Shown: positions 10,019 to 61,679 of the stretch, in pieces | Layout of the letters: each line of letters starts with the position of its first letter | How positions within the stretch are numbered: the first letter of the stretch is position 1 | IMG/VR virus record: IMGVR_UViG_3300048672_000970 | Coordinates: 64,001 to 128,000 of that record | DNA: 64,000 bases | From: a virus | Lineage: Duplodnaviria; Caudoviricetes | Reading direction: 5' to 3' (one strand) | Notes under the pieces: generated by a model | Databases searched by the model: none | The model's input: the letters and a program-made list of their open reading frames with translations, nothing else | Told to the model about the DNA's origin: nothing | Program-made: the position numbers and the translations under genes

Positions 10019-10024
10019 TAAATA
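10019..10024 (+). promoter_or_regulatory. TAAATA late-promoter-like box (one of ~12 in the window)
   Basis: TAAATA 18 nt before ATG 10043; same arrangement at 24520, 30503, 34321, 40751, 53203, 60843 (+) and 41879, 45763, 58441, 60833 (-). Confidence 0.65.
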
Positions 10025-10042
10025 CCTAAAACCAATACTCCT

Positions 10043-10663
10043 ATGCTTCTCAAACAACTTCTTTCTGAAATGCCAGTAGCTATTAACACCGAATTGGTCG
10101 ATTCTGGTGATGAACCTTTTACGGTCTTTTTCATGTCTGATGACACTATGAAACGCCGTGGATATAGAGAGATAGGTAAAAAGGGTAAAGTTCATATCAT
10201 GCTCAGTAAAAACAATCAAATCTGCGTGGCTGGATTTGAAGATATTCGGCATGATGGAACTTCTGGTTTCAAGGTTTTAGGGATGTTAGAGTTCAAAATG
10301 CAGCTCAATCTGGGCATCGACCTGCATACACAAGGGCAAATGGTGCAGGTGGAACTGGTTGAGGTATCTGACCAATTCAAAGAGCTTGGATTGGGCAGTT
10401 TCATGTATCATCGGGTGGTGCAGTCTGGCTTGACGTTGGTTTCAGACAATCAACAATATCTTGGCGGACAATCACTCTGGCGAAAGATTGCGAAAGCGCA
10501 TATGGCTGATGAAGTGGTCTATGTCATGCAGAAAGGGAAGTTACTCTCTGATAGTGATGGACAACCTATCGAGTATGATGGCAAGAACATTCCGGATTCG
10601 AGTATTTGGAGTGAAGATGCTACTCACAAGCACACCTTGCTGATTTACACAAAACGGGGGTGA
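10043..10663 (+). CDS. GNAT-like fold protein, putative virion internal protein
   Basis: VEVSDQFKELGLGSFMY (motif-A-like) and SDxQQxxGGxxLW; N-terminal MLLKQLLSE. Confidence 0.55.
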   Translation: MLLKQLLSEMPVAINTELVDSGDEPFTVFFMSDDTMKRRGYREIGKKGKVHIMLSKNNQICVAGFEDIRHDGTSGFKVLGMLEFKMQLNLGIDLHTQGQMVQVELVEVSDQFKELGLGSFMYHRVVQSGLTLVSDNQQYLGGQSLWRKIAKAHMADEVVYVMQKGKLLSDSDGQPIEYDGKNIPDSSIWSEDATHKHTLLIYTKRG

Positions 10664-10796
10664 TGGATGTTGGGTATGCTAAAGAAGGGGTGTTTGAACT
10701 TACTGCGCCGGAGCTGAAAAAGATGCAACAAATGCTTGAAGCGCGTTTCAGAATCCATTACAATCGATGAATCGAAACCAACTGGAGAAAAATTTC

Positions 10797-11489
10797 ATGG
10801 CTGACCAGCAACCGCCGAAACCGGCACGAAATGAAATTGATGAAGAAGAACGTTCGGCACTTAAGCAATGGTCTGAAAATACTCTACTTCTTTCACGCGC
10901 TGAAGCTGATGTCTTCATGAAGGAGAACGCTGAACACATTTATTATAAGTACGGCCTCGGAATGGAAATCATTCAGCGATGTGATACACGCGAACAGTTT
11001 ATTAGTTTCATGCTACGCTCTGCCGTACATTATGACCCGCACAGTTGGATGAACGGTACGCCATATTTTGTGAACGCTGGGGAAAAGCGGAATCTGTGGC
11101 TGTCGACGGAAGCTATTGAACGTATCGTCAAGGAGCATCCAGAGCAATGCTTGGTGGATTCGTGTACGTTTGACTCTGAAGAATTGGATAACGTTTTTGG
11201 GTTTGAAGAATACCGAGTGATGCCTTACAAGGTAGCATCTGAACCGCAATACCTGTTTGATTTCAATAGATTCTATTGGGATGAGCGTGGCGACCGGCGT
11301 TTTCATTTTCAAAAAGTTGAAATGCCTGTTTATGACATCGCCGATTTTGAAGTGGCGGCGGATTTGGAATTTCCGTTAATGGTCAGTTTGATTTCGCATG
11401 ACACGTTTGACCGCTGTGGGTCGATTACGGGGTGCCAAGTGACCATTTACCCGGTAGACCTTGAACCTGGGATTATTCGGGTGGTGTAA
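10797..11489 (+). CDS. Hypothetical protein
   Basis: GGAG SD before ATG 10797. Confidence 0.7.
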   Translation: MADQQPPKPARNEIDEEERSALKQWSENTLLLSRAEADVFMKENAEHIYYKYGLGMEIIQRCDTREQFISFMLRSAVHYDPHSWMNGTPYFVNAGEKRNLWLSTEAIERIVKEHPEQCLVDSCTFDSEELDNVFGFEEYRVMPYKVASEPQYLFDFNRFYWDERGDRRFHFQKVEMPVYDIADFEVAADLEFPLMVSLISHDTFDRCGSITGCQVTIYPVDLEPGIIRVV

Positions 11490-11494
11490 TAAAG

Positions 11495-13854: not shown

Positions 13855-14314
13855 ACATTTAGAAACCGCGCTGCAATCTTGTCAAACTGAAAATTATTGG
13901 ATTGATTTTGACCCGTCTAGGCTAGGCTCATTTCAAATCCTGATTGATGATATTATGGATATTTTTGTAATGGAATTGCAAAATGATGGCTCTGTTGTTC
14001 GGGCTACCAATAACATTGAGGTGTTAACTAACTTTCTCAAATGTTTCCCTCTTGCAAAAATTCAAGAGCTACTTGCTTTTGATGATGCTGTTCAAATTCG
14101 TTATAACGCGTATATTGATGAGCATGATAATCTAGTTGTCAAATCTGTTCCACATGACCACATGACTTATCCTGATGCGAAACTGGCAGTGCTTGAAGCG
14201 CTTGAAGATTTGGAACGCGTTTACAATCGGGCTATTGTTGACAATCACCATCGACTTATTCAACTTCAGCATGGAATGGAAATCATCAAAAAGGAAATTT
14301 TGAACCGTAGGTAA
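13844..14314 (+). CDS. Hypothetical protein (paralogue of 14910)
   Basis: AAGGA SD; MTIKHLETAL. Confidence 0.7.
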   Translation: MTIKHLETALQSCQTENYWIDFDPSRLGSFQILIDDIMDIFVMELQNDGSVVRATNNIEVLTNFLKCFPLAKIQELLAFDDAVQIRYNAYIDEHDNLVVKSVPHDHMTYPDAKLAVLEALEDLERVYNRAIVDNHHRLIQLQHGMEIIKKEILNRR

Positions 14315-14343
14315 ATAAATTTCTTTAAGAAAGGTACTGAACA

Positions 14344-14907
14344 ATGTATATCGCTAAGATACAAGAACTTTTGGATACTGTAAGTAACCGGATTAATGCT
14401 GGATACGCCACCCCTATTGGTAAACTGGCTATTACCGTTGATGCTCATGAGTGCGCTCCCGACCTACAGGTTGCAGAGATTTATTTCAATTATTTTCAAG
14501 GTCGTCTTTCACGAGCATGTATCTGCAACATCATAGTGACCGAAATTGATGGTGGTTGGTATTCTGGGATCACCTCTGTCAATCCCTCTCCGGTAATGGG
14601 TTTTGGTATTTTCACGTCTACTGAAATCAATTTACTGCTTGATTATGCACGTGAAAACCCTAATCTCCAGGTTATGTTTGTTGCTGATATTGTTGATGGG
14701 GTAATTGAAGTTAAAGAGATTTCGGCAATTCATCCACTGTATGATCACTCAAGTTACGCGGCATCAAATCCAGAAAAAGCAGTTGAACTTCTGTTAAAGA
14801 ATTCTCAATATGAATTGCAAAACCTAAGGAAACGTGTTGAAGCGCAAATGGATGAAGTTGCAATGATTGAATCTCATCTCTTAGGAATTCAAAAAGGGGG
14901 CTTTTGA
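14344..14907 (+). CDS. Hypothetical protein
   Basis: Long ORF, C-terminal coiled coil. Confidence 0.7.
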   Translation: MYIAKIQELLDTVSNRINAGYATPIGKLAITVDAHECAPDLQVAEIYFNYFQGRLSRACICNIIVTEIDGGWYSGITSVNPSPVMGFGIFTSTEINLLLDYARENPNLQVMFVADIVDGVIEVKEISAIHPLYDHSSYAASNPEKAVELLLKNSQYELQNLRKRVEAQMDEVAMIESHLLGIQKGGF

Positions 14908-24517: not shown

Positions 24518-24547
24518 TGTAAATAGAGAAAACCAAATGGGAGTTAT

Positions 24548-24892
24548 ATGGAATTTGAACGTCTAGTTGAATTGGCTGGCATCAGTAACGAAGGGACATC
24601 AATCTCTGAACAAATGCTTGAAGAAGGTATCATCAGTAAGGTTGCACGGGTTGGTATCCTGATGGGTGAATCTGACGACCTTAAGACGACCGGCAAGGTG
24701 TTTTTCATCAAGAATGATAATCCGGCCGTTGAACTACTGGTACAGACACTCGGTATTCCGGGTGATGGCACCGCATTTCGTACAGGTATGCAAGGTTTCG
24801 CGTGCTATCACGAAGACCGGCAATTACTGTTTTTTGCGAAGTACAAGCGTGACCTGCCTGTGTACATTGACACGATGAATAAAAAGAAGTAA
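24548..24892 (+). CDS. Hypothetical late protein
   Basis: TAAATA at 24520; MEFERLVELAG. Confidence 0.65.
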   Translation: MEFERLVELAGISNEGTSISEQMLEEGIISKVARVGILMGESDDLKTTGKVFFIKNDNPAVELLVQTLGIPGDGTAFRTGMQGFACYHEDRQLLFFAKYKRDLPVYIDTMNKKK

Positions 24893-30490: not shown

Positions 30491-30526
30491 TCTAACCCCA
30501 TGTAAATAATAAAAACTATCATTGGC

Positions 30527-32146
30527 ATGGCAGCATTCAAACAATTTTTAGCTGAGATGAAATTTACCGAAGTGATGCCGAAAGGCTTCAAAGAGTTTCA
30601 CGACAAGTACAAGACGAAACAATTCAAAGACGAGCATCTATTTGTCAACTTTTCAAACCATATTGGTAACGTTGATGACAAAACTTCTTATGCAAATCCA
30701 GACCATCATGACCCGCAAGGCACATATGGCTATCCACTGAAATATGTGATTGACCATCCGAGTGACCTGATGTATGGGGTGTCGGCGAAGTTTTTACGGG
30801 TGTTACAACCTTCTTCTAATGCAAACATTCTCTGGCTTCAACATATGATGCCAAACCAACAGCGGAAAATGTTCAACCAGTTTTTTCATAAGATTGAAAT
30901 GGAAACGGCGATTAAAGCCATGCGCACTCATCGGAATCTAGAAAATGATAACTCAGCTTGGTTTTCGTGTATGCAGCTACCCGAGACTGAAATGGATACA
31001 CTGATTAGCTGGTATAAAACTAAAAAACAAAACAGGGAACGAATTGACCTGAAAATTTTATCTGCTGGCGAGCAAACAAAAAGATTCCGAATGTTTGACA
31101 TTGACGCCATTCTAGATACGGCGTCTAATCTCAAAAAAGCCATTATCAACGACCGTGAGCCGGAACAAATTGTGTTCCTACACCGAGGCGCTTTCAAAAC
31201 TGTGGAAGTGTTTAATCTAAGGGACGTTAAAGAAACTCGTGGTGAAAGTATCACTAACATTTCTTCTGCGCACGAGCAAGAAACTTGTAGAAAGATTGCT
31301 GCTGAAGTTGCATTGCGTATCGGTGAAAAGTTACTTTCAACTGCACCAATGACTAATAACATGGGCGGCTATAACGTATTTTTCACGAAGTCTGGACAAC
31401 TCATTTGGGTTGACATGCAGAATTCTGCCGAACGAGAGGGTTTGAAAATGGGGCAGAAGAAACATAAAGAATTTAAGAAGAATGACAGGCATGAAGTGGC
31501 TATTCGAGTTACTGGAAAGAAACAAAAGGTTGAGGGAAAGTTTGGTATTGATTACTCGATTGAGGAAATGGCTAATATTATCAAGCGGTATTATGAAATG
31601 GCTGATGACGTTGAAACCTTTACCCCGTTCCATTCTGCCAAAGAATATACAGACCATCAGGCCAAATTGAGTAGTCTGGCCGCCAAAAAACGTGCGCGCG
31701 CCGAATACATGGCTGCAGGTACGGAGAAGATTAAAGAAGGTGTAGAAAAGTTCTATCATGCTTTCGGAGTGACCCCTGATAACTTAGCTACAGAAGCTGA
31801 TGTGTTATGGGTATTCAAAAACATTCAAATGGCGTTACCGTTCTATTTTGATTCTAAAGAGTCAGTGCAAGATGAGGCATTACAGCAAGAATCATACCTC
31901 AGAAATATTGGCACCAAAATTGCTCGTAATTTTGTAATGTCGTTGGCTGATGAGTTACCCGCCCGGATGGATTTGCCACAGCTTGAAAAGGTGTTAGATA
32001 AAATTCGTGTAATGGCGAAGGATTGGGATGAATCGACTTTAAGACGGATTAAACATCTGGCGTTTAGCGGCGGGATGTCAAGTACGCCGAACTACTCCTA
32101 TCCAGAGCATGTTGTAGACCTGCTGACTCGTGAAAAGTTGATTTAA
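30527..32146 (+). CDS. Large hypothetical late protein, putative virion internal protein
   Basis: TAAATA at 30503; MAAFKQFLAE; PxGTYGYPL motif. Confidence 0.75.
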   Translation: MAAFKQFLAEMKFTEVMPKGFKEFHDKYKTKQFKDEHLFVNFSNHIGNVDDKTSYANPDHHDPQGTYGYPLKYVIDHPSDLMYGVSAKFLRVLQPSSNANILWLQHMMPNQQRKMFNQFFHKIEMETAIKAMRTHRNLENDNSAWFSCMQLPETEMDTLISWYKTKKQNRERIDLKILSAGEQTKRFRMFDIDAILDTASNLKKAIINDREPEQIVFLHRGAFKTVEVFNLRDVKETRGESITNISSAHEQETCRKIAAEVALRIGEKLLSTAPMTNNMGGYNVFFTKSGQLIWVDMQNSAEREGLKMGQKKHKEFKKNDRHEVAIRVTGKKQKVEGKFGIDYSIEEMANIIKRYYEMADDVETFTPFHSAKEYTDHQAKLSSLAAKKRARAEYMAAGTEKIKEGVEKFYHAFGVTPDNLATEADVLWVFKNIQMALPFYFDSKESVQDEALQQESYLRNIGTKIARNFVMSLADELPARMDLPQLEKVLDKIRVMAKDWDESTLRRIKHLAFSGGMSSTPNYSYPEHVVDLLTREKLI

Positions 32147-33774: not shown

Positions 33775-34367
33775 TGCGTTCAGTAGTCATCAACCTATTC
33801 GCCGGCCCTGGAGCTGGTAAATCAACCACTGCGGCTCGTTTGTTTTCATCCCTGAAGCTGCTGGGTAAGAATGCTGAACTGGTGCAGGAATTTGCCAAAG
33901 GGGCTGTGTGGGAAAAGCGAAGTCAAAAGCTGTTTGCTTGCCAACCGTATATCACAGGTAAACAAATTTGGCAACAGGCTCGGCTAGCCGATGAAGTGGA
34001 ATTCATGGTATCCGATTCGCCGATTCTGCTAGGGCTGGCTTATATTTCTGACGATGAACCCTCCGAGTATAAATCAGCTTTCCAGACGGTTTTGCTTCAC
34101 GAGTTCAATCGCCATACCAACATCAATTTCTTCATCAAGCGGGCCAAAGCTTATAACCCGAAAGGACGGAATCAAACTGAGCAGGAAGCGATTGAGAAGG
34201 ATAATGAAGTGAAAGCATTCCTGAATTCTCTTAACATTCCGTTCATTGAAATTTCGGGCGATGCTTCGGCGGACATGCAAATTATCGACCACCTTATTTT
34301 GAAGGGCGTTATCAATGAAGTAAATAATGGAAACACCCTCCATTATGAAACTTCGCCAAATTATTGA
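33771..34367 (+). CDS. P-loop NTPase / NadR-like nucleoside kinase family
   Basis: INLFAGPGAGKST, ELVQEFAK, SDSPILL, GRNQTE. Confidence 0.8.
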   Translation: MMRSVVINLFAGPGAGKSTTAARLFSSLKLLGKNAELVQEFAKGAVWEKRSQKLFACQPYITGKQIWQQARLADEVEFMVSDSPILLGLAYISDDEPSEYKSAFQTVLLHEFNRHTNINFFIKRAKAYNPKGRNQTEQEAIEKDNEVKAFLNSLNIPFIEISGDASADMQIIDHLILKGVINEVNNGNTLHYETSPNY

Positions 34368-35196
34368 GTCACCTATTCCTGACGCCGACCCCCTGAATGA
34401 TTTCTATCATCATTCAGGGAGTTTTTCATTTCGTGAAAACATCGGCCGTTTCAAGAAACGATTTCCGATTATTGGGCAAGGGTCATCGAGAGTAGTTTTC
34501 TCCGCACCAATCGATATCAGTTGGTTGAAAGCAAATGATATAGAGAAGGTTGGTAACAAACAAACCGGCATTAAAACCGCCATCAAACTAGCTAAAAATG
34601 CTAAAGGCTTATTTCAGAACGCGGAAGAACTGCGTATCTATGAAATAGCAAAACACATGGGTAAAGAAAGGTTCCTATGCCCTATCATCGATTGGGCTGG
34701 TAATCCAGCTTATAAGAATGATATCGTTTATACCATTTCCAGTGGGCATGATTTTGAAGCGAAGAATGGTTCTAGAAAAGCTCCATTCTGGCTCCAAATG
34801 CCGCAGGTGGTATCTCCATCTGTATCCACCTTCGATAAGTTTTTCAGCAAGCAATTTGGTTTTGTGCCAGAGTTTAGTTTGACTGAATATAATTACATGT
34901 CATCCGATGAGGCTCATGCTGAAATGGCGGCGGATGTATATGCACAGGCGTGCGACCAGTTTTCTAGCACGAAAGAGCAAGAGGATGAATTTGCCGATTT
35001 CCTTTCGTTAGCTAACGCAGTATTTGGTACAGGAATCGTAGACATGAACAACCCCGCTAATTGGGGCATTTTAGATGGGAAGCTGGTCATCATCGATTTC
35101 GGATATTCGGAAGACGTGCAGGATACTTATTCCGGGCATGTCAACATGGAAACTGCCGTTGTAAATAACGAAATAGTTATAAGTATTGAAGAATGA
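34345..35196 (+). CDS. Protein-kinase-like protein 1, putative virion internal protein
   Basis: IGQGSSRVVF Gly-loop, AIKLA, QNAEE, DMNNPANWG, VIIDFG; TAAATA at 34321; MKLRQIIE. Confidence 0.8.
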   Translation: MKLRQIIESPIPDADPLNDFYHHSGSFSFRENIGRFKKRFPIIGQGSSRVVFSAPIDISWLKANDIEKVGNKQTGIKTAIKLAKNAKGLFQNAEELRIYEIAKHMGKERFLCPIIDWAGNPAYKNDIVYTISSGHDFEAKNGSRKAPFWLQMPQVVSPSVSTFDKFFSKQFGFVPEFSLTEYNYMSSDEAHAEMAADVYAQACDQFSSTKEQEDEFADFLSLANAVFGTGIVDMNNPANWGILDGKLVIIDFGYSEDVQDTYSGHVNMETAVVNNEIVISIEE

Positions 35197-35999
35197 AACT
35201 GCGCGCATTGTTAGAAACTCCCATTGATGATGGGGCAGAAATGCACACGACTAAATCTTGGTTTTCATCTCACACCAAGATGGATTTCAAGAAGACCACT
35301 AAATCATTTTCAAAAACCTACCAAGTATTAGGAAAGGGGTCATCAAGAATTGCTTTCTCAGCCCCTATGAATATTGATGTATTCAAAGCCGATGATTTAA
35401 CGAACGTTAGTCAAAAAGATGGCAAAGCTGATACAGTCATCAAACTGGCATTCAATGAAAAAGGATTGGCTCAAAACATTGAAGAACTGAAACTATGGCA
35501 TCTGGCGAAACAACTTGGGCATGAGACGTTACTTTGCCCTATCATTGATTGGGCCGGTAATCCAGCGTATAAGAATGATACGAAGTACGTTATCGACGGG
35601 CAAAACTTTGCGGCGAAGAACGGAGATAAGAAAGCCCCTTTTTGGATTCAGTTGGCGGCGGTAAAACAGTTAACGTCCGACGCACAATTGTCCAAACTTT
35701 TTGAAGATGAGTTTGGGTTTTCAATCGAAGAACTTCGCTTACTAGCTCTGCACGCTAAACAAACTGGTAAAAAGAATTATACCAAGTCGAATGCCAGCGA
35801 GTTTTTACGGATGTGCGATTCACTCAAAATGTCGGCGGGTGATTTATTCGCGTATGAAAATTGGGGATTGCTGAAAGGTAATTTAGTTATTATCGACTAC
35901 GGTCTAACAGATGCCAATGAACACTTGTACGATTCGGAGGCGGGAGATGTTAAAATCTATTCCTCCGTTGAAAACGGAGAAGTCACTATAAGGATTTGA
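35193..35999 (+). CDS. Protein-kinase-like protein 2 (tandem paralogue)
   Basis: LGKGSSRIAF, VIKLA, QNIEE, DLFAYENWG, VIIDYG; shares LCPIIDWAGNPAYKND with upstream ORF. Confidence 0.8.
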   Translation: MKLRALLETPIDDGAEMHTTKSWFSSHTKMDFKKTTKSFSKTYQVLGKGSSRIAFSAPMNIDVFKADDLTNVSQKDGKADTVIKLAFNEKGLAQNIEELKLWHLAKQLGHETLLCPIIDWAGNPAYKNDTKYVIDGQNFAAKNGDKKAPFWIQLAAVKQLTSDAQLSKLFEDEFGFSIEELRLLALHAKQTGKKNYTKSNASEFLRMCDSLKMSAGDLFAYENWGLLKGNLVIIDYGLTDANEHLYDSEAGDVKIYSSVENGEVTIRI

Positions 36000-40543: not shown

Positions 40544-40753
40544 ATGAGTTATTCAATCAAAGACATCGCTAAAGATTTTCTGCGTGGTAAATTACCAGTT
40601 ATCACCCAAGAAGAAATTGCCGTAGAACGCATGAAAGTCTGTAACGACTGTTCGTACAAAACTAAATTATCGAATCAATGTTCGCTGTGCCATTGCTTTC
40701 TCGACCTGAAAACAAAACTTGTTCAATCATCTTGCCCGATTGACAAGTGGTAA
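40544..40753 (+). CDS. Small Cys-rich (Zn-binding) protein
   Basis: ERMKVCNDC..QCSLCHCFLDLKT...CPIDKW. Confidence 0.8.
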   Translation: MSYSIKDIAKDFLRGKLPVITQEEIAVERMKVCNDCSYKTKLSNQCSLCHCFLDLKTKLVQSSCPIDKW

Positions 40754-40781
40754 ATAATGGCTAACAAGTAAAATACTCCAT

Positions 40782-41585
40782 ATGGGTTCATTCAAAAACT
40801 TTCTTACCGAGTATGATTTCTCGGGTAACTTTGCCAACGATATTCGACATGCACATTTTCCGGGGGTGCATGCCATTGAGCGGGCTGTAATGTCATCAGG
40901 ATATTCAACTAACATTCCGAGCATGATTAATTTGATTGCTCAGAAATTGTTGTCACCCCATGTTTCGTTAGAATCTTTTGAAGGGCTAGAACGAACGAAT
41001 GACGCGACCAAAACTGCCTTTCTTAATGCGTTAAAGAAAATCTCGGATAACCTTGAGAAGTTCAAAAGTAAAACTTATTTGCAGAGTTTGAAAAAAGACC
41101 CTGAATTAAATGGAATCGTGGCGGATGTCTCCCATCGGCAAAAGATTTCAAAGGACTTTACACAGGCTGAAAAACGAGCATGTGAAAAATTTGGTTCTAC
41201 TTCCAATCCGCAGCAGCGCGAGCTGTACATCAAATTAATGCGTGGCACTGCTCCAGATGCAGTGGGCGAAGCTTTCAAAAATTCCATTAAAGTGAAAGTT
41301 GATTCAATTGGTGATTCAGATGGTCTGCCACGAGAAGACAATCTCGTGAAATATATTCGTGTGGCTTATATCAGGTTTTCTATTTTACACACACGGGCAA
41401 CTGCACTAATCGCCGAAATGGCTGATTTGATGGGGATGGTTGATGCGTCAGATACCGTCAATTATGACGCCAGTACCGACCCGGATGCTAACACCAATAA
41501 CACCCCTCAAACAAATCAACCGGCTCAAGCGACTGCAGCAGCGTCTGTAGCACCTTCACCGGCACCAGCACAAACTAAACCATAA
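40782..41585 (+). CDS. Hypothetical late protein, putative virion internal protein
   Basis: TAAATA at 40751; MGSFKNFLTE. Confidence 0.7.
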   Translation: MGSFKNFLTEYDFSGNFANDIRHAHFPGVHAIERAVMSSGYSTNIPSMINLIAQKLLSPHVSLESFEGLERTNDATKTAFLNALKKISDNLEKFKSKTYLQSLKKDPELNGIVADVSHRQKISKDFTQAEKRACEKFGSTSNPQQRELYIKLMRGTAPDAVGEAFKNSIKVKVDSIGDSDGLPREDNLVKYIRVAYIRFSILHTRATALIAEMADLMGMVDASDTVNYDASTDPDANTNNTPQTNQPAQATAAASVAPSPAPAQTKP

Positions 41586-44219: not shown

Positions 44220-44531
44220 ATGGATGAAGTGATTTTTCAATCAATCCTTGGCGTGTGGTTTATCCTCGCGCTGCTTGACACGGTTTACACCGTCACCGAA
44301 CTGGAGTTCAATTTCTATTTGCTGAAAGATAGGTTGCAGCTTCAGACGGCAAAAGTACGTTACACGGTTTTGGCAATTTGTTCCATTGGCATTTTCGTGT
44401 CAACCATTCTTTACGTGCCTATCGTGCTTGTTAAAAGCATGATTGACCGTGAACTTTGGTACCCGGGCAAGTATTCCACCACGTATTCTGCGTACCTGAT
44501 TAGAAAACTCAGGCGCAAGTTCCACAACTGA
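44220..44531 (+). CDS. Two-TM membrane protein
   Basis: AAGG SD, hydrophobic helices. Confidence 0.6.
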   Translation: MDEVIFQSILGVWFILALLDTVYTVTELEFNFYLLKDRLQLQTAKVRYTVLAICSIGIFVSTILYVPIVLVKSMIDRELWYPGKYSTTYSAYLIRKLRRKFHN

Positions 44532-44556: not shown

Positions 44557-45147
44557 TCATTCATACTTCTGTTTTTCTCGCATCACCTTTGCTGAATAGC
44601 GCGGATTCTTTCTTTTACCCGTCTTATAACTCGTGATACCGACGTTATACGCTTCCAGTGCAGCTTTCTCTGAGCCAAGCTGGCGATAATAATCTGCAAG
44701 CATTTGCGCACCGACTTTAATCTGATAGTCAATATCCGAGCCAATTTTCACCGCGTCCAAATCATTAACACCCGGTCGAATTTGCATCAATCCTAACGCC
44801 GGGTCGGATGCTAACTTTGATTTGGCCCGAGGGTTAAATTCTGATTCAACCCCAATCACAGCTAACAAATCTTCCGCTTTAGGAAAATCAGGTTTGGCAT
44901 GCCGTGATACCGATTTCATGATTTTGTCCACTAGACTAGGAGCGACATCATATGAATCAATGACAACTTGCTTCAAATTTTCTAACGCAGCTTTTTGCTG
45001 CTGCACCATTTTATGAACAGTATTCTGTTGCTGATGCATTTTCCCGCCATGCATCAATAATGCAGCGGCCGTCGCTACCGTCGCCACACCCGTTTTTAAC
45101 TTACCTTCCTCCAGGCGAGTTTGGTACAGTTCCTTGATGAGCTTCAT
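44557..45147 (-). CDS. Soluble lytic transglycosylase (SLT) domain protein
   Basis: AVIGVESEFNPRAKS (catalytic Glu), ALGLMQI, ALEAYNVG, YSAKV. Confidence 0.9.
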   Translation of the reverse strand: MKLIKELYQTRLEEGKLKTGVATVATAAALLMHGGKMHQQQNTVHKMVQQQKAALENLKQVVIDSYDVAPSLVDKIMKSVSRHAKPDFPKAEDLLAVIGVESEFNPRAKSKLASDPALGLMQIRPGVNDLDAVKIGSDIDYQIKVGAQMLADYYRQLGSEKAALEAYNVGITSYKTGKRKNPRYSAKVMREKQKYE

Positions 45148-45737
45148 ACCATTTCTTTAATGGATGCCAGCTTGCGGTCATACGACCGTCCCCATACCGT
45201 CATAGACCGCGTTAAACCGGCCAAAATAACTTTAACCTGCCCGAACACTTCTTTAAGACCTTCATCCAATTTGGTGACCCGTAACGCCGGTTCCTTCTTC
45301 GCCACTTGAACAATTTTCGTGTATTTGGCGACAATTTCTTCCACTTGCGGCTGAAGGTCATCTTCAATCAGTTCTGATAACGCCCGTGCAACTGCTTCCC
45401 AATCAGTATCAGATTTGGTACTAGCCTTTTCTACATTTTTAGCTACTGATGCGGAAAATCGAGCAGTTTCAACTACTCGGGTATATACTTCGTCGGTCGC
45501 GTCAAATAACTCAGTTACTTTCACTCGCACATCGGCGTGCAACGATTTTTGTAAGGATGAAAGCCGGTCAAGTAATGTCGAAATTTTGTTATACTTGGCA
45601 AGCATTTTAGTGATGCTGGTTGCCGTAGAACCTTCGGCGGCGAGAGTAACTTTATCAATAGCACCTTTAGCTATCTTTTCAGTATATTTCGCACCAGGGA
45701 TACGCGCTTCAGAGAGTAGTTGTTGAATGAGAATCAT
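45144..45737 (-). CDS. Hypothetical late protein, putative virion internal protein
   Basis: TAAATA (minus) at 45763; MILIQQLLSE. Confidence 0.7.
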   Translation of the reverse strand: MILIQQLLSEARIPGAKYTEKIAKGAIDKVTLAAEGSTATSITKMLAKYNKISTLLDRLSSLQKSLHADVRVKVTELFDATDEVYTRVVETARFSASVAKNVEKASTKSDTDWEAVARALSELIEDDLQPQVEEIVAKYTKIVQVAKKEPALRVTKLDEGLKEVFGQVKVILAGLTRSMTVWGRSYDRKLASIKEMV

Positions 45738-45775
45738 CTTATGGTAGAATTGTTGCAAACAGTATTTATCAAAAA

Positions 45776-46300: not shown

Positions 46301-46348
46301 AGCAGACGGGTACGTTCTATTTTTTATCTCTGCGTGAAAGGAAACCCA

Positions 46349-48304: not shown

Positions 48305-48307
48305 ATC

Positions 48308-48329
48308 AAAGGGGCTTCAGCCCCTTTTT
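48308..48329 (+). terminator. Rho-independent terminator after prkA
   Basis: GGGGC-ttca-GCCCC-TTTTT. Confidence 0.8.
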
Positions 48330-48345
48330 CTTTACAGGAAAAGTT

Positions 48346-49695: not shown

Positions 49696-49739
49696 ACCGA
49701 CGACCCGCTTCGCGGGTCTATTACACGAAAGGAATTGAA

Positions 49740-51056: not shown

Positions 51057-51064
51057 AAGGATTG

Positions 51065-52576
51065 ATGATGGAGCAAATTACTAGCAAGACCGTCTGGTCT
51101 GAACAGCTCATTCGAGCTGTTTGGGAAGAAATTAAAATCGTTGCAGAAGAAGAACTGGAAATTAGTTTTCCGGAGCATCTGTACCCATTTCAAATCGAGA
51201 TGATTACGGCTGATTCAATGATTAATGCCTATGCGAGTATTGGCATGCCCATCATGTACTCACACTGGAGTTTTGGTAAGGAATATATGCGCAATAAGCA
51301 CGCATATGACAACGGGCAGTCGGGGCTAGCTCTAGAGCTGATCACAAACGATTCCCCGTGTTCCACAATGCTGATGGAAGATAACGCCATGTACCAACAG
51401 GCGATGGTCATTGCGCATTGTGTCGGTCATAACAGCTTTTTCAAGTGCAATGATTATTTCGTCCAATGGACTAACGCCGGTTCCATCATTGATTACCTAG
51501 CGTTTGCCAAGCGGTACATCACGCAATGTGAACTGCGGTACGGTGAAGAAGAAGTTGAACGGGTACTTGATGCCGCGCATTCTCTAGCTCAACATGGTGT
51601 TGACAAGCATCCCCGCAAGTCGGCCCGAAAGATGACTGAATCTCAGTACCTGCAAATGCTTGTTGAAAAAGAAGAACGTGAGATGCAGGAATCGGACTAT
51701 ATCCTGAACCGGACGAAGCTGAAATCATCTGACAAGGATGAACCGAGTCCAGATTGGATGGATGAAACTTATGACCCGCTCGTCGGGGAAGAAAACCTGC
51801 TTTATTACATCATGAAGCGGGCGCCCAACATGCCGACCTGGAAACGTGAAATTCTGCGTATCGTCTGGAAGATTAACCAATATTTCTATATTCAGGGGCA
51901 GACGAAGATTAGCAATGAAGGGTGGGCCAGTTTCTGCCACTATTTCATCATGACTCGACTTGAAGAAAAGGGCGTTATTAGCAGTGATGCGTTCCTCGCT
52001 TTCCTGCGCGACCATTCGGGTGTTATTTTCCAACCGACGTTTGACAAGCAGTATTATTCCGGCGTGAATCCTTACGCAGTGGGTTTTGCCATCTATCAAG
52101 ACATCAAGCGGATTTGCGAAAATCCAACTAATGAAGATAAGAAATTTATGCCGCATCTCATTGGGCAGAAATGGCAAGATGCTGTTACGCGGGCCGCTTT
52201 TGAATATCGTGATGACAGTTTCATCATGCAATTCATGTCTCCGAAAGTGGCGCGGGATTTGGCGCTGTTTTCAGTAGAAATTAGTACCAAGCAAAATGTC
52301 CTTGGGCAGAAAAAGCAAACTGCTCTGGTAACGGACGTCGCCGATTTGGACGGGTTTCGCAACCTGCGCAATATGATGGCTGAGAATACTCAACGGATTG
52401 AGCACGTGCCTGAAATCAGGGTTAGTGGTGCTGATTTTGAGGGCGATCGAACGCTGGTGCTGCACTATCATCCGTACAAAAATCGAGAACTGGACGTTGA
52501 AGATACGCAAGCAGTCATTTCGTACATTGATGAACTGTGGGGATATCCGGTTGAACTTTACACGGTGACGGGTTAA
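51065..52576 (+). CDS. spoVR: SpoVR/YcgB family protein
   Basis: YASIGMP.MYSHWSFGK, LELITN, VIAHC.GHNSFFK.N, NEGWASFCHY, NPYA.GF, RDDSFI.QF. Confidence 0.95.
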   Translation: MMEQITSKTVWSEQLIRAVWEEIKIVAEEELEISFPEHLYPFQIEMITADSMINAYASIGMPIMYSHWSFGKEYMRNKHAYDNGQSGLALELITNDSPCSTMLMEDNAMYQQAMVIAHCVGHNSFFKCNDYFVQWTNAGSIIDYLAFAKRYITQCELRYGEEEVERVLDAAHSLAQHGVDKHPRKSARKMTESQYLQMLVEKEEREMQESDYILNRTKLKSSDKDEPSPDWMDETYDPLVGEENLLYYIMKRAPNMPTWKREILRIVWKINQYFYIQGQTKISNEGWASFCHYFIMTRLEEKGVISSDAFLAFLRDHSGVIFQPTFDKQYYSGVNPYAVGFAIYQDIKRICENPTNEDKKFMPHLIGQKWQDAVTRAAFEYRDDSFIMQFMSPKVARDLALFSVEISTKQNVLGQKKQTALVTDVADLDGFRNLRNMMAENTQRIEHVPEIRVSGADFEGDRTLVLHYHPYKNRELDVEDTQAVISYIDELWGYPVELYTVTG

Positions 52577-53185: not shown

Positions 53186-53227
53186 CTTTTTCCTGATTGG
53201 AGTAAATAGATGAAACCAACATACATA

Positions 53228-53560
53228 ATGGCTAAATTCAAAGATTTTCTTGCGTCGGTGAATGCCGATTTGAAGAAGTACAAAGTCATCCCGGTCAATA
53301 AATCAGCATTCAAGCCGGCTGCTCCACTCGACCAGTTTTCGTCAGATTCTGAAATCGAGCATCGAATCAAAGAGGTGAAAAAACAAATTGCTGCGCTGGA
53401 ACGAGCACATACTGATTTCCATAATTTAGTGTCACCAACCCCTGAGCAAGCTAAAAAGTATCGCAAGACCATTGAACACTGGCCCGCCCTCAACTTTGAA
53501 TTAGAGCGCCTAGAAGCCGATTTGCATGGTAAGGTGCCAGACACCATCAAGAAGGGTTGA
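53228..53560 (+). CDS. Hypothetical late protein
   Basis: TAAATA at 53203; MAKFKDFLAS. Confidence 0.65.
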   Translation: MAKFKDFLASVNADLKKYKVIPVNKSAFKPAAPLDQFSSDSEIEHRIKEVKKQIAALERAHTDFHNLVSPTPEQAKKYRKTIEHWPALNFELERLEADLHGKVPDTIKKG

Positions 53561-53569: not shown

Positions 53570-54106
53570 ATGGGCCGTTTTAGAGCGTTTCTGATTGAGG
53601 CTAATGAGTTGACTTTCAGTGATGAAACCACCGGATATCATCATGGGCAAACTGATGCTCGCCTGCACATTGCTGTTAATGGTGAAGCAGTTGGGTATAT
53701 CGACTATGTTATCTATGAGGACAAAATTCATATCTCAATGATTGAGATTTCTGCCTCAGCTAAACGTAAGGGGTATGCGACGGCCGCATTAAAGCATCTT
53801 CAAAAAAATAATCCTGATACTGAGATTGATTTTGGCATGCTAACCTCTGATGGGTCAGCTTTACATCAATCATTGTCATTTGTTAAAGTCCCTAACAAAC
53901 TTTATGCTGAAGACTTTGAAAAGTTAGACCAGATGAAACTTGACCGGGAACGGTTGACCCAGCAGCAAAAGGTATTATCTAAAAAAGATGATAAGTATTG
54001 GGAGCTTGAAAACGAGATTGATGACCTAGCGTATGAAATCGAGAAAGAAGAAACTTATTTCTCAATTCGCAAAATCAAACCGTATAAAACATTAATTAAG
54101 GTGTAA
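53570..54106 (+). CDS. GNAT-like acetyltransferase, putative virion internal protein
   Basis: VGYIDY..IHISMIEI...KRKGYATAAL (motif A); MGRFRAFLIE. Confidence 0.7.
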   Translation: MGRFRAFLIEANELTFSDETTGYHHGQTDARLHIAVNGEAVGYIDYVIYEDKIHISMIEISASAKRKGYATAALKHLQKNNPDTEIDFGMLTSDGSALHQSLSFVKVPNKLYAEDFEKLDQMKLDRERLTQQQKVLSKKDDKYWELENEIDDLAYEIEKEETYFSIRKIKPYKTLIKV

Positions 54107-54107
54107 C

Positions 54108-54971
54108 ATGTCATTCAAGCAATTTCTATTCGAGGGCGGAAAAGCTACTGCCAAATTTCATACTAAGCGGGCGACAAAACCAGATATTGAGGCAGCAATC
54201 GAGTTTGTTTCTTCGACGTTAGGTATTGACAAGCAATCTATCATTGATAATTTGGTTGGCTCAACGGTGTTAACTTATAACGGAGATAGGGAAGATTCCG
54301 GCGACATTGATATCGTCTTTGAGTCTGAGCATAAAGATGAGTATGTCAAAAAGATGTCTGAAGCCACTAACGAACCCTGTGTTATCGCTAACGTCACTTA
54401 CTCATTCCCTGTACCAGTTTCAGATACCAAAATGGTTCAAGTGGATTTTACTTTCTCTGACAATATCGAATGGGCAAAATTTTCTTATCACGCGGACAAG
54501 AACTCGAAATACAAATCTGGCGTAAGGAACGAGTTTTTACATTCAGTCGTCAAATACACGCCGAAAGATGGGGAAGATTTGAAGGTCAAGGATGAGAATG
54601 GCAACCTTATCGTGAAAGCTGCCAGAAGTTTCAGGCTTGATAAAGGATTTGAGCGAGTGTTCAAAATTGCACCTGAGAGAAAAGATGGGAAAGGACGTGT
54701 CAAATCCATGCAATCAGTGGAACCGGATGCCATTGATGCCGAGCTGAAAAAACTAGACAAAGAAGGGTCTTACAGTAAAGACGCCGATTTGATTACAGAC
54801 CCGGATAAATTTGCGAGTATGCTTTTTGGCGAAGGTGTTAAAGCAAAAGACATCATGACGGCAGAGCAAGTTATTGCGTTGATTAAAAAACGCCCGGATG
54901 CTGTCAAAGTATTCGCTGATGCTAAAAAAGGATTGGAGAAACGGAAACTAGAAATTCCGGAAGGGATATAA
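54108..54971 (+). CDS. Pol-beta-superfamily nucleotidyltransferase, putative virion internal protein
   Basis: LVGST...DSGDIDIV (GS + DxD), VQVDF third Asp; MSFKQFLFE. Confidence 0.75.
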   Translation: MSFKQFLFEGGKATAKFHTKRATKPDIEAAIEFVSSTLGIDKQSIIDNLVGSTVLTYNGDREDSGDIDIVFESEHKDEYVKKMSEATNEPCVIANVTYSFPVPVSDTKMVQVDFTFSDNIEWAKFSYHADKNSKYKSGVRNEFLHSVVKYTPKDGEDLKVKDENGNLIVKAARSFRLDKGFERVFKIAPERKDGKGRVKSMQSVEPDAIDAELKKLDKEGSYSKDADLITDPDKFASMLFGEGVKAKDIMTAEQVIALIKKRPDAVKVFADAKKGLEKRKLEIPEGI

Positions 54972-58499: not shown

Positions 58500-59340
58500 C
58501 TGAAACCAAACGGGCTAAAACGCGCTAGGAGCGATTTGTTGGTGGAAGGTAGGCATGGGTAGCTTGACGGATGAAATCGGCTCTATGACCCGTTTAAGTG
58601 CCTTCGCGGCCCATGCTCTTATTTGTCACCTATAGGAGTTTATTGAATGAATGGAAAAGCCGGTAGGTCAGTCGGTTGGTTCCGTTCAGAGAAAGGCTGG
58701 TAGCCGGTTTGTGTGATTGGTTAGCTCAAGCGAGTTAGCTACATGTTGGTTTAACGGCTGTTAGCGCGTTCGTTGACCTGTTGGCTACCTGGGTAGTCTG
58801 TTGAGAGAAAACGGCGCTAATGCCCGTTAAACGCATTCTGGTAGCATGTTCTTATTTGTCACCTATAGGTATTTCTCAAATGAGTGGAGAGAGCTTGGTG
58901 GGTGGCTTAGGTTGATTAGCTCTCAGAAAAGCTCGGTCAAGCAGTGGCGTGAGTCGGCTTGCAGCCGGTAGGCTCAAGGTGCGAAAGAACTGCTTGACTG
59001 CTGAAGCCCTAACGGGCTGAGGTTATGTGTACAGATAGGTTAACAAACGGATGTCTAGTATCTGATAGATGAGCCTATAGAGCGATTAGGTAGAGAGGTA
59101 GCTACCCTGGTAGCCTAACGGATGAAAACGGCTCTAAAGCCCGTTAAGGCTCATTACGAGTCAATTCCTTATTTGTCACCTATAGGAGTTAGTCGAAGAA
59201 ATGAGAGGAAGGGTGGTTGGTTAGGTTGGTTCAGAGAAAAGTTAGCCGGAGTGATCAGGGCTGGCTTGACTGCTTGTTAGAGCAGCAAACAGCGAATGAC
59301 TACCCCGGCTACTGAAAAGCCCTTTAGGGCTTAAGGTTAG
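58500..59340. repeat. Non-coding three-unit hairpin/box array
   Basis: Identical CTTATTTGTCACCTATAGG at 58618, 58851, 59168, each 28-29 nt after a CCCGTT(T)AA hairpin base; no ORF of 60 aa or more. Confidence 0.85.
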
Positions 59341-59343
59341 GTG

Positions 59344-60813
59344 TTAATAGCCTCTAAGTTCGATTCTGTCATGTTCGTCAAGGAAACGCATGAACACCAC
59401 ATTTTGAAGAAGTTCATAGTTGGTGATGTCTAACTCAGTATTTTGGTATTCATCCATAGTTTCTTTAACCTTTTTTCGGATGGCAGTCGGTTCTGCTAAA
59501 AACTTTTTAACTTGGGTTAAACGATGTTCGTTGAATTGATTTGTCCAAGTGATGACATCTCGCGGAAGATAATCGGCAATGTCAATTGAGTATTCATCAA
59601 ATTCTTCGTCGTTTTCTATAGCGGCATCACGCGCCGCATCAACATCTTGTTCATACCTCTTATACCCGTCGTTGTATTCTTCCACCTGTGCATTTACATA
59701 TGGCTGCAGGTCACGGTCGAAATATTCAGCACCATGCTTTTTCATATCTTCATCAGATACAACCAATATGTGATTAACTAAATCTGGTGAAGTTCGTACA
59801 TACTCGCGCACGATATCCATATGGGGATACTTCTGTTCAAACTCAAGTGCCCATAAAATCTGTCCATTAAACTCATTCTGTGGTTCGTCAATCATGGCTA
59901 GTTGTTCACCATCTTGTTGAATGACAGCCAAATCAGCCAAATCAGATTTTTGAAGCACGATGATGTTCTTTGCTGGGTTTGCGTTATCGATGAAAAACCA
60001 GTGTCGTGAATAATCATTCCAGAAAGATTTTGTTTCAGCGGCGGCTAAAGAAGCATTGGCGAACGCTGACAGAAGTTTTGAATCTCCATCAAGTTTGAAA
60101 TGTTCTTTGATGATGCGTTGCATGATGGCAGGGGTGTTATAATGGGTGTCATAGACAGTCACGCCATGTTCAGCATGTGGTCGTTCAGCCAATACAGCTT
60201 TGTGTTTTGATTTCTGAATGGCATTGATGATAAATGTCATCATGTTTTTTACTGCGCCAACCGTAGGATTCATTTTCCCCCAGATGAATCGACGGAATGA
60301 AAACGCCCCCTTAACAATACCATTTTCCGATTGCTCGACCCGTTCGGTAATGTCTCGATTGGCTTGGTTGTACCGTTGCATAAATTCGGTGGCAAGGTCA
60401 TCAATCGCGTCTTCAAGTTCGTCAGAATCCACGTCTACATCTTCTTCAACTGTCGTGACGATTTTTTCCCATTTGAAACGGAATGATTGGCGGTCAAATC
60501 TATTCAGAAAATAAGTGAAATGTGGATCAAGTGCCGGGTCGGTTGCACGATTATAGTTGGTGAATTGCATGGCCAGCGCGGAAAAGTTATGTGTACCGCT
60601 GCTATTATCCGCCGTGATATTAACGTAAGGTGTGACGATTGCCCCAATCAACCCTTGGGCATATTTCTCTTTCCCATATACTCCTGGCATAAAATAAACG
60701 TTCTCTTTTCGATGTTTGGAAAACTGCTTGTAATAATCTGAATAATCAGTTCCCCAATATGATTCACGTAACACAGGGTCGGTGAATGCTTCCAAAATAT
60801 GCTTTAGCTTCAT
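59344..60813 (-). CDS. Large hypothetical late protein, putative virion internal protein
   Basis: TAAATA (minus) at 60833; MKLKHILE. Confidence 0.75.
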   Translation of the reverse strand: MKLKHILEAFTDPVLRESYWGTDYSDYYKQFSKHRKENVYFMPGVYGKEKYAQGLIGAIVTPYVNITADNSSGTHNFSALAMQFTNYNRATDPALDPHFTYFLNRFDRQSFRFKWEKIVTTVEEDVDVDSDELEDAIDDLATEFMQRYNQANRDITERVEQSENGIVKGAFSFRRFIWGKMNPTVGAVKNMMTFIINAIQKSKHKAVLAERPHAEHGVTVYDTHYNTPAIMQRIIKEHFKLDGDSKLLSAFANASLAAAETKSFWNDYSRHWFFIDNANPAKNIIVLQKSDLADLAVIQQDGEQLAMIDEPQNEFNGQILWALEFEQKYPHMDIVREYVRTSPDLVNHILVVSDEDMKKHGAEYFDRDLQPYVNAQVEEYNDGYKRYEQDVDAARDAAIENDEEFDEYSIDIADYLPRDVITWTNQFNEHRLTQVKKFLAEPTAIRKKVKETMDEYQNTELDITNYELLQNVVFMRFLDEHDRIELRGY

Positions 60814-60866
60814 AGGTCTATTCATTTAGAAGTATTTATCAATAAATAACTCAAAATGACAATGGT

Positions 60867-61679
60867 ATGCAACTTCTTCAAGAACTCATCGGTATCAAGA
60901 AATATTCCGGGATGACCATCATCAATGCTATCAAGCAAATTGTGCAACGAACACCAGCCGGAATCAAAACTTTCAGCGGGTCATTTGGTATCACTTTGGT
61001 TGCAGATGCATTACCGTATGTGTACAAAGTTTGGTTAGCTGACGCGGCGTATGAAAAATATATTGAACTGGTGTTAGCTCACCAAGATAACCCATTTTTC
61101 CCAAAAGTGATTGGAGATGTAGTTGAGTTGAAAAACATCTTTGCTGAAGGAAAACCACCTATTCCAACTATCAAAGTAATTCGATTGGAAAAGCTGAAAC
61201 ATGGAAATTTGTCAGAATTGAAAAATGAGGCGTTAGCCAGTGTCATTCGAGCTGGATTCGTATCGCTGGAACGTGATACCAATAAAGACCGTGTGAAAGA
61301 AAAAGTAATTCAGCGTATCAAGGAATTAGAAATTGCCTATAACGGATTCAAGACTGATTCTAAAACTGGCGCCAATCTGGCTTATATACAAAAAGCTAAT
61401 GGTAATCCGACACGCACGTTTGTCGCTTCAAATGAAGTGATGAAAGGTCGCAGTAAAGCGGCGGCGTATCTGGCTATTTCAAAAATGGATGTTGATAAGC
61501 TGGTTGACACCATTATTCAAATCCATGAAGCCTGTACTGCTCTGAACAAAATCGACCCGGAATATGATGTCTATGCGGACATGCACGAAGGCAACATCAT
61601 GTTCCGGGCGAATGGTGAATTAGTTATCACCGACCCGATGACATCTAGTAAAGGTACATACCCATTGACTCTGTTTTAA
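60867..61679 (+). CDS. Protein-kinase-like protein 3
   Basis: SGSFG, VYKVW, YEKY, FFPKV, ADMHEGNIM, VITDP; TAAATA at 60843; MQLLQEL. Confidence 0.75.
   Translation: MQLLQELIGIKKYSGMTIINAIKQIVQRTPAGIKTFSGSFGITLVADALPYVYKVWLADAAYEKYIELVLAHQDNPFFPKVIGDVVELKNIFAEGKPPIPTIKVIRLEKLKHGNLSELKNEALASVIRAGFVSLERDTNKDRVKEKVIQRIKELEIAYNGFKTDSKTGANLAYIQKANGNPTRTFVASNEVMKGRSKAAAYLAISKMDVDKLVDTIIQIHEACTALNKIDPEYDVYADMHEGNIMFRANGELVITDPMTSSKGTYPLTLF

Follow-up and report, generated by a model that had tools for sequence, protein, structure and literature searches.

The stretch of DNA analysed here, called the window below, comprises 64,000 nucleotides (bases 64,001–128,000 of the single 200,363-bp IMG/VR contig IMGVR_UViG_3300048672_000970; window coordinates count from its first base) and carries thirteen dispersed genes whose products start with a common type of short N-terminal leader. 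For most of this set, the leaders are probably capsid-targeting sequences (CTSs) and prohead-protease propeptides of the type found in bacteriophage T4. This reading accounted best for the combined observations because the tag itself, its linkage to a late-promoter-like hexamer, its portability among proteins, the conservation of the residues critical in T4, and the protease genes of related phages all pointed to it. Judged from their promoters, the thirteen tagged genes are likely produced late, together with head proteins, ten of them behind TAAATA and three downstream in tagged units. Delivery of the proteins into the host and modification of the host by them would be a further and more tentative step; a preliminary description of the window had read the set as a putative host-modifying arsenal acting before phage gene expression.

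Thirteen leader-bearing genes and a late-promoter-like hexamer

All thirteen start codons and N-terminal peptides given in the preliminary description were confirmed at their positions. The genes are listed here with the basis of each assignment and are referred to below by the first base of the start codon; a hyphen follows the last residue of the leader.

10043..10663, plus strand: GNAT-like protein, 206 residues (MLLKQLLSE-M); motif VSDQFKELGLGSF read directly, and family phrog_7522
24548..24892, plus strand: tagged protein of no known family, 114 residues (MEFERLVE-L); family searches
30527..32146, plus strand: tagged protein, 539 residues (MAAFKQFLAE-M), possibly of ADP-ribosyltransferase (ART) fold; homologues and model
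34345..35196, plus strand: protein-kinase-like protein, 283 residues (MKLRQIIE-SPIP); alignment and model
35193..35999, plus strand: kinase-like paralogue of 34345 (39% identity), 268 residues (MKLRALLE-TPID); BLASTP
40782..41585, plus strand: tagged protein of no known family, 267 residues (MGSFKNFLTE-Y); family searches
44557..45147, minus strand: SLT lytic transglycosylase, 196 residues, with a short Alt-like leader (MKLIKE-L); Pfam SLT, E 3e-13, 49.7 bits (cut-off 21.3)
45144..45737, minus strand: basic tagged protein of no known family, 197 residues (MILIQQLLSE-A), isoelectric point (pI) 9.1; family searches
53228..53560, plus strand: 110-residue protein whose leader keeps the targeting half and has Ser for Glu (MAKFKDFLAS); sequence
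53570..54106, plus strand: GNAT acetyltransferase, 178 residues (MGRFRAFLIE-A); Pfam Acetyltransf_1, E 4e-6, 27.5 bits (cut-off 20.7), residues 20–78
54108..54971, plus strand: nucleotidyltransferase-like protein, 287 residues (MSFKQFLFE-G); pol-beta-type motif (GS, 13 residues, DIDIV) read directly
59344..60813, minus strand: acidic tagged protein of no known family, 489 residues (MKLKHILE-A); Pfam, PHROG and ESM Atlas returned nothing
60867..61679, plus strand: kinase-like relative of the T7 gp0.7 family, 270 residues (MQLLQE-L); phrog_15752 protein kinase, E 7e-7, and phrog_2828, E 3e-5

The preliminary description had reported TAAATA 18–25 nt upstream of nine of these genes and had assigned the other four to following positions in the same units. 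Spacing and positions were borne out, but both counts shifted by one: the hexamer, starting at −24 to −31, precedes ten genes, and three (45147 on the minus strand, 53570 and 54108) come next in tagged units. The ten hexamers are as follows.

10019..10024, plus strand: TAAATA, 18 nt before the ATG at 10043
24520..24525, plus strand: TAAATA, 22 nt before the ATG at 24548
30503..30508, plus strand: TAAATA ahead of 30527, directly 3′ of an intrinsic terminator hairpin (GGGGCTTCGGCCCC and a T run)
34321..34326, plus strand: TAAATA, 18 nt before the ATG at 34345
35162..35167, plus strand: TAAATA located within 34345, 25 nt before the ATG at 35193
40751..40756, plus strand: TAAATA, 25 nt before the ATG at 40782
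45763..45768, minus strand: TAAATA, 25 nt before the ATG at 45737
53203..53208, plus strand: TAAATA ahead of 53228, directly 3′ of an intrinsic terminator hairpin (GCCGGGCATTGCCCGGC and a T run)
60833..60838, minus strand: TAAATA ahead of 60813, back to back with the hexamer at 60843
60843..60848, plus strand: TAAATA, 18 nt before the ATG at 60867

Across the contig, TAAATA is rarer (72 copies) than base composition predicts (~190), and 41 of the 72 copies stand, in sense orientation, at −36 to −18 relative to a called start, where 0.9 were expected and where the choice of start codons during gene calling gave a bonus to TAAATA. By its placement, TAAATA is a genuine position-locked signal with the character of a late promoter. 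It also occurs upstream of tail-tube, tail-fibre and very large structural genes and was not found ahead of the ligase, topoisomerase and UvsX genes. Ten of the fifteen positioned hexamers in the window precede tagged genes. An intrinsic terminator followed by TAAATA ahead of 30527 and of 53228 makes these two genes appear as self-contained late cassettes among early genes.

The opposite-strand hexamers at 60833–60848, 4 nt apart (TATTTATTGATAAATA), have the layout of a compact bidirectional late promoter for the divergent genes 60813 (minus strand) and 60867 (plus strand); 60813 could instead start at the ATG at 60825, although only 7 nt would then separate it from the hexamer. A GAAAC box following TAAATA was considered as a leader-specific element and dropped, because some late genes with the tag have it and so do some without. 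Many early-type genes (for example upstream of window positions 8871, 15462 and 32214) share a (T)CCAT(C)CATCAAC box immediately ahead of a strong AAGGAG ribosome-binding site; the box is probably a promoter or leader signal of early genes, separate from TAAATA.

The leader is enriched at gene starts and behind TAAATA

We described the leader as Met, 0–3 residues, a hydrophobic residue, two residues of any kind, two hydrophobic residues, 0–1 residue and Glu. This pattern was present at 19 of 271 called gene starts in the contig, about five-fold above the 3.6 that its frequency inside proteins predicts (Poisson P ~1e-8), and 2000 shuffles of the N-termini produced 3.1 ± 1.7 leaders with a maximum of 10. 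Three tagged genes, 53570 and two in an array outside the window, had been overlooked by the gene caller. The leader was clearly commoner among genes behind a positioned TAAATA (10/41) than among the others (9/230; Fisher P 7e-5), a comparison that the preliminary description had named as a check on its own proposal. Seven of the nine leader genes without a TAAATA of their own sit within late operons.

As a control, the same pattern was applied to T4 bases 50,001–150,000, where it recovered IPII, IPIII, Alt and gp24, all known substrates of the gp21 protease, at their true starts. It missed IPI and additionally matched gp2 and four non-head proteins (rnlA, ligase, cd.3 and e.6). Within the annotated uvsW range of T4 (114,210–114,440), a 76-codon frame starts with the very CTS-like MLLEFKQFLYE-A. 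The pattern was thus specific, though imperfectly so: about 3% of T4 genes matched without being head proteins, and at this rate of false positives 4–6 of the contig matches could be due to chance, with far fewer among the TAAATA genes. This rate, together with the post hoc writing of the pattern from the matches themselves, counts against the capsid-targeting reading and in favour of a resemblance that arose by chance or from compositional bias of N-termini. Such an origin appeared highly improbable when set against the excess of observed leaders over the shuffle maximum, their linkage to TAAATA, and the conservation of the leader in homologues presented below.

The leader fits the residue rules of T4 on mostly unrelated proteins

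In T4, IPI, IPII, IPIII and Alt carry CTSs that the gp21 prohead protease cuts off (Mullaney and Black 1996; reviewed in PMC9026906 and PMC3012670). Amber-suppression work on IPIII (MKTYQEFIAE) attributed targeting to residues 4 and 7 and the direction of cutting to residues 8 and 10, with Asp at position 10 blocking cutting but not targeting (PMC9026906). The leaders in the window have the same build, being 6–10 residues long with hydrophobic residues at 4 and 7 and an L/I-x-Glu end. The 10-residue register contains MAAFKQFLAE, MGSFKNFLTE and MGRFRAFLIE, which resemble the IPIII leader, as well as MILIQQLLSE and the Glu-less MAKFKDFLAS; the 9-residue register contains MLLKQLLSE and MSFKQFLFE; and the 8-residue register contains MKLRQIIE, MKLRALLE, MKLKHILE and MEFERLVE. 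The 6-residue leaders of 45147 (MKLIKE) and 60867 (MQLLQE) are like MELITE of Alt. Eleven of the thirteen leaders fit the 10-, 9- or 8-residue register with hydrophobic residues where IPIII has its residues 4 and 7, and twelve end in hydrophobic-x-E or hydrophobic-hydrophobic-E. The exception is 53228 with its Ser, for which the separation of targeting from cutting by Asp10 in T4 is relevant. We treated the 6-residue leaders of 45147 and 60867 and the leader of 53228 as weak or ambiguous, and estimated from sequence a tagged set of about 20 genes contig-wide, of which at least 10–11 lie in the window.

After removal of the first 12 residues, BLASTP related only 34345 and 35193 among the thirteen window proteins, supporting a tag that is portable across proteins unrelated by BLASTP. 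The codons of the leader vary (Leu as CTT, CTC, CTA, CTG, TTA or TTG; Glu as GAA or GAG; Phe as TTT or TTC) while the residues are kept, which indicates selection on the peptide and not on the mRNA.

The codon variation also bears on a different explanation, in which the shared N-terminus is unrelated to the capsid and serves as a tag for another phage enzyme or chaperone, as a membrane or compartment helix, or as a feature of translation initiation on late mRNAs without a Shine-Dalgarno site. Most of the TAAATA-driven tagged genes do lack such a site and have very short mRNA leaders, and no protease gene was found in the contig. However, untagged late genes (tail tube, fibres and large structural proteins) use the same type of promoter and mRNA leader without the peptide, the tagged genes within operons do have Shine-Dalgarno sites, and the invariant residue is Glu, as the protease rule requires. 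No radical-SAM gene was present in the contig to support a tag for such an enzyme, and tagged proteins have been found in virions of the related phage RsoM2USA (see below). Taken together, these findings make a role unrelated to the capsid quite improbable, and favour the capsid-targeting reading.

Outside the window, a paralogue array at contig 167.9–177.4 kb carries MKLxxLFES leaders, and a single gene at contig 6,805 starts with MKLLQRFLAE. A TAAATA-driven late gene of no known family at 14312–14907, absent from the preliminary list, starts with MYIAKIQE-LLD, a short Alt-type I-x-E leader. Short repeated frames starting with MKTA(V/L)... in gene-free stretches (window 59122–59280; contig 51,944 and 61,020) belong to non-coding repeat arrays.

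The leader Glu is conserved in two protein families

An exhaustive HMMER search with 34345 returned 111 representative proteins (clusters at 50% identity), whose N-termini are T4-like, as in MKTFKEFLSE-APIP, MKTFKEFLLE-TPLL and MRLKEFLTE-NPLP (many having MKTFKEFL.E), and are followed by a conserved PLPxDWD. The leader was present in 89 of 113 unselected family members. In an alignment of 61 sequences, from which two N-terminally short sequences were omitted so that invariance refers to full-length members, the leader residue E8 was invariant, like G46, R49, K81, E95, D233, D251 and G253, and N239 was nearly invariant. The aligned residues match the Gly-rich loop, the N-lobe Lys and Glu, the catalytic Asp...Asn, and the D-x-G of protein kinases. 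In the AlphaFold2 model of 34345 (predicted local distance difference test, pLDDT, 84; residues 1–6 below 50), every top Foldseek and VIA row was a protein kinase (Rio1, PRPK, MPS1 and CDKL1), at modest scores (Foldseek E ~1e-3 and TM ~0.3; best VIA Z 7.4 with a root-mean-square deviation of 3.6 over 134 residues). A profile of the family found nothing significant among PDB sequences (E 0.36). Between 35193 and its orthologue P0004 (MKLRALLE-TPID and MRLHTLLE-APID, respectively), L3, L6, L7 and E8 are kept and four other residues, including P1′, are changed. A search for related loci with 34345 and 40782 as queries confirmed no relatives.

The second family was that of 30527. Among its 29 homologues, the leader varies in length and always ends in hydrophobic-x-E just before a conserved (V/M)HY, and at least 90% of 24 aligned sequences retain E10. 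In both families the Glu is nearly as conserved as the core residues. Residues 1–11 of the 30527 model (pLDDT 72) were below 50, and the low values at both N-termini are consistent with a free tag outside the fold.

Residues 14–249 of 30527 best matched 9k3a_B, a pre-ejectosome ejection protein of cyanophage A4 (Foldseek E 6e-4; VIA Z 7.2 to its residues 1117–1611). This match to an ejection protein also counts in favour of the capsid reading. VIA also gave Z of 4–5.2 to ART folds, including a diphtheria-toxin homologue, ParT, MbcT, RES toxins and PARPs, for the tested residues of about 20–235. Invariant in the family are H60, Y67, Y69, Y73 and E211, with a spacing unlike that of diphtheria toxin or PARP, and no sequence-family match was obtained from Pfam or, at significance, from the family profile against PDB sequences. 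Based on the model, an Alt-like cargo of ADP-ribosyltransferase fold is a lead only.

Enzyme families among the tagged proteins

The preliminary description had counted catalytic motifs in seven tagged proteins (three kinase-like, two GNAT-like, one nucleotidyltransferase and one SLT), and these assignments were supported at the level of fold or family by Pfam, PHROG, ESM Atlas, the motifs and a predicted fold, those of 10043 and 54108 as leads. Even with E allowed up to 10, Pfam yielded no usable match for 10043, 24548, 30527, 34345, 35193, 40782, 53228, 54108 and 60813. The GNAT assignment of 10043 came from look-alikes in ESM Atlas and a motif-A-like ELGLG: feature scores were 0.94–0.96 to clusters with Acetyltransf_1, structural TM values were 0.58–0.78, and the bacterial GNAT look-alikes aligned only from residue 21, in line with a leader that lies outside the folded domain. 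RsoM2USA_116, which is 45% identical to the 10043 protein, begins MKLDELLKKHLQE-MP behind TAAATA, and XacN1 ORF170 and three Alishewanella phage genes begin likewise. For 54108, without a match in Pfam or PHROG, ESM Atlas gave 0.95–0.97 to viral clusters that are named nucleotidyltransferase or have NTP_transf_2 in 33% of their members. The motifs DMHEGN and VITD were read directly in 60867, and its PHROG families are those of T7 gp0.7 and of Ser/Thr kinases.

In the SLT protein encoded by 45147, the catalytic motifs ES (VESEF), GLMQI and AYNVG were read directly, and PHROG matches included transglycosylase, endolysin and internal-virion-protein families. The gene start overlaps the preceding tagged gene by 4 nt, and a weakly hydrophobic Gly/Ala/Thr segment follows the leader. 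For this gene only (44557–45147), a signal-arrest-release (SAR) endolysin exported through the weakly hydrophobic N-terminal segment is a competing explanation to capsid cargo. Its N-terminus reads MKLIKELYQTRLEEGKLK and then TGVATVATAAALLMHGG, a Gly/Ala/Thr-rich composition typical of SAR domains that speaks against packaging of this protein; the matches to endolysin families and two small membrane-protein genes that converge on the SLT gene (43553–43966 and 44220–44531) point the same way. Capsid cargo is favoured by translational coupling to a clearly tagged late gene and by an additional match to 'internal virion protein with endolysin domain' (phrog_342), and a PHROG scan of the surrounding genes recognised no holin or spanin family nearby. 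We regard SAR-type export as a serious possibility for this one protein, though not the likelier one.

Five tagged proteins (24548, 40782, 45737, 53228 and 60813) gave no family in Pfam or PHROG searches, and 60813 gave none in ESM Atlas either. Three of these, 45737, 53228 and 24548, are small, belong to no enzyme family and are partly basic, properties that would suit an explanation in which the leader does target the prohead but many of the tagged proteins are core, scaffold or other head-internal parts, which are degraded or act in assembly or on packaged DNA and are not effectors. The T4 core proteins gp22, gp67 and gp68 carry similar leaders (MLKEQLIAE, MEGLIE and MLLIPE) and are degraded (PMC9026906), and scaffold candidates of XacN1 and RsoM2USA start with MKELLEKLL and MDEILQKLL, respectively. 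Some of the tagged proteins, with the product of 45737 as a candidate, may be parts of the core or scaffold. Extended to many of the tagged proteins, this explanation is unlikely: seven or eight of them have enzyme folds with intact catalytic motifs, which would make little sense in a disposable scaffold, and T4 Alt is a precedent for a tagged and ejected enzyme.

The genes around the tagged set include further enzymes. Directly upstream of 30527 lies a gene for a NAMPT-type nicotinamide phosphoribosyltransferase (29046–30455; Pfam NAPRTase and NAMPT_N), and a NADAR and SLOG (YAcAr) protein is encoded 4 kb downstream (36003–36797), an NAD-related neighbourhood. At 46334–52576, a PrkA AAA+ / PrkA kinase gene (E 4e-122) is followed by a FAD-dependent oxidoreductase (DAO) gene and two more large genes, which by sequence looks like a phage-borne stress-kinase operon of the PrkA/YeaG type.

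Related phages encode gp21-like prohead proteases, and one carries tagged virion proteins

T4-type genes in the contig (topoisomerase II subunits, UvsX and tail-tube proteins) and distant cultured relatives placed the source, an uncultivated jumbo phage, in the wider T4 superfamily. The contig is linear, with a completeness of 56% by CheckV, and megablast of 12 kb against 50,697 phage records gave no match. Topoisomerase II was 43% identical to that of Pseudomonas phage pf16 and 40% identical to that of the Ralstonia jumbo phage RsoM2USA. The latter was the closest cultured relative found, with 53% identity in PrkA in addition to the 45% noted above for 10043.

Genes for a PF03420 protease, a Gp23 capsid protein and a T4 portal are present in two distant IMG/VR relatives reached through 30527, namely G001 (94% complete) and G002; G001 also encodes about 11 proteins that start with xFxxLFE-S/T/A. 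In G001 (L011:2653-4758), the 30527-type domain forms the C-terminal part of a 701-residue frame, whose extra ~115 N-terminal residues start with MIIYRGVS... and which contains an internal MRLLGRCTE-M ahead of the conserved domain; the frame could represent either a fusion or two separate genes. RsoM2USA has a gp21-like protease (ORF379) in addition to its scaffold candidate, and its capsid protein contains ...SRMIAE-TAAS. The XacN1 capsid protein contains ...IMLAE-TAS.

Virion gel bands of RsoM2USA have been identified with LC-MS/MS (PMC8504454) in a study in which only the major bands were analysed, the leader was not noted and processing was not tested. Three hypothetical virion proteins from these bands had masses matching their locus tags. 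Two of them, ORF89 (MKTFKQFLSE) and ORF132 (MKTFKQFLNTLME), are tagged, both starting with MKTFKQFL, and ORF86 is without a leader; ORF89 and ORF132 have no detectable homologue in the contig. These bands, which come from another phage, are the only experimental support and are indirect. ORF257 and ORF438 were not counted, since their published masses (17.6 and 51.7 kDa) differ from those of the locus tags (19.6 and 62.4 kDa). At contig 149,953–153,500, outside the window, the gene next to the homologue of RsoM2USA_438 starts with MKFLQQLEE and is homologous to the tagged RsoM2USA_437.

Discussion

Several observations weigh against a T4-type capsid-targeting function, in addition to the post hoc origin of the pattern. 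PF03420 (gp21 protease), PF07068 (Gp23) and PF07230 (T4 portal) all failed to match in the 200-kb contig, and the T4 gp55 late sigma factor as a protein query found no counterpart in the contig and a weak match in G002 only. The missing head genes indicate that the contig is incomplete, and absence from it is not proof of absence from the phage. Most of the tagged proteins are acidic or neutral (pI 5–6), unlike the basic internal proteins of T4. Relatives of 60867 keep MLLQELIGIKQY well past the Glu, which makes the tag of this protein doubtful, because its N-terminus may belong to the fold. By sequence comparison, the presence of the tag varies between orthologues: RsoM2USA_438 has a 21-residue leader ending in ILTE, and its contig homologue at 149,953 is without it, starting exactly after that leader. 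The chitinase and lipase of the XacN1 virion carry no tag, indicating that tagging is not the sole route into related virions. Set beside these points, the claim of the preliminary description that the leaders are of the T4 capsid-targeting type retained a circumstantial basis in the match to the T4 rules, portability, the conserved Glu, the protease and capsid genes of relatives, and the RsoM2USA bands.

If the leaders function as in T4, each would attach its protein to the scaffolding core while the prohead assembles and would then be cut after the Glu by a gp21-type prohead protease, with the mature protein remaining inside the filled head. At least some of the tagged proteins may then leave with the DNA at infection. 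The cargo would comprise the kinase-like pair, the T7-gp0.7-like kinase, two GNATs, the nucleotidyltransferase-like protein, the SLT protein and possibly the ART-like protein, in analogy with T4 Alt.

The system shares with T4 a leader placed on unrelated proteins, including in T4 an enzyme (Alt), from scattered genes, here expressed late as judged from their promoters. It differs from T4 in the number of tagged genes (~20 in 200 kb against about five), in a cargo of mostly acidic enzymes in place of small basic proteins, in having registers of 8, 9 and 10 residues, and in the promoter (TAAATA against TATAAATA); its protease and head genes are not in the contig, and it is known here from sequence. 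RsoM2USA has TAAATA-driven late genes with the same leaders. 60867 matches the PHROG family of T7 gp0.7 (E 7e-7), but that kinase is made early, once the phage has entered, and is neither packaged nor tagged. In phiKZ-like phages (phiKZ, 201phi2-1 and SPN3US; PMC5694885), many head-internal proteins, some of them forming paralogue families, are likewise cut after Glu by a gp21-related protease and ejected into the host, with N-termini conserved between diverged paralogues. However, their propeptides mostly exceed 100 residues and are cut at A/S-x-E, in contrast to the T4-length leaders and L/I-x-E ends found here, and the present phage has T4-type replication genes (topoisomerase II and UvsX). 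Polyvalent and podovirus ejection proteins (T7 gp14–16; A4 gp26–29, PMC12002296) also bring enzyme domains (lytic transglycosylase, peptidase, ART and GNAT) in the capsid and release them at infection, and 30527 resembles part of an A4 pre-ejectosome chain, while the tagged set includes an SLT domain. Those proteins are giant, multidomain and stacked on the portal without a cleavable short tag, whereas the proteins described here are separate, small and individually tagged.

The mechanism would be that of T4, and CTSs have already been suggested to let T4-like phages load varied proteins (PMC9026906). New elements are the dispersed terminator-promoter-gene cassettes, the enzyme-rich cargo, the tagged kinase-like family and the link to cultivable phages. 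This kinase-like family with its invariant leader Glu is widespread in metagenomes, where it is annotated as of 'unknown function'. In its broadest form, which we put forward tentatively, the leader would be a sequence-readable address label that much of the T4 superfamily uses, jumbo phages included, with at least 20 proteins here loaded into the head and injected. On this view, sequence alone would suffice to predict which effectors uncultivated phages inject, and phosphorylation and acetylation in the host would start ahead of any phage gene expression. If the tags work as in T4, head cargo could be named from sequence where virion proteomics of cultivated phages would otherwise be needed. 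The same leaders in the cultivable RsoM2USA, XacN1 and Alishewanella phages make the idea testable, and the tags may serve as natural variants for T4 protein-packaging technology. The number and kind of the putative cargo proteins suggest that the single packaged enzyme of T4, Alt, may represent the small end of a larger strategy among jumbo phages.

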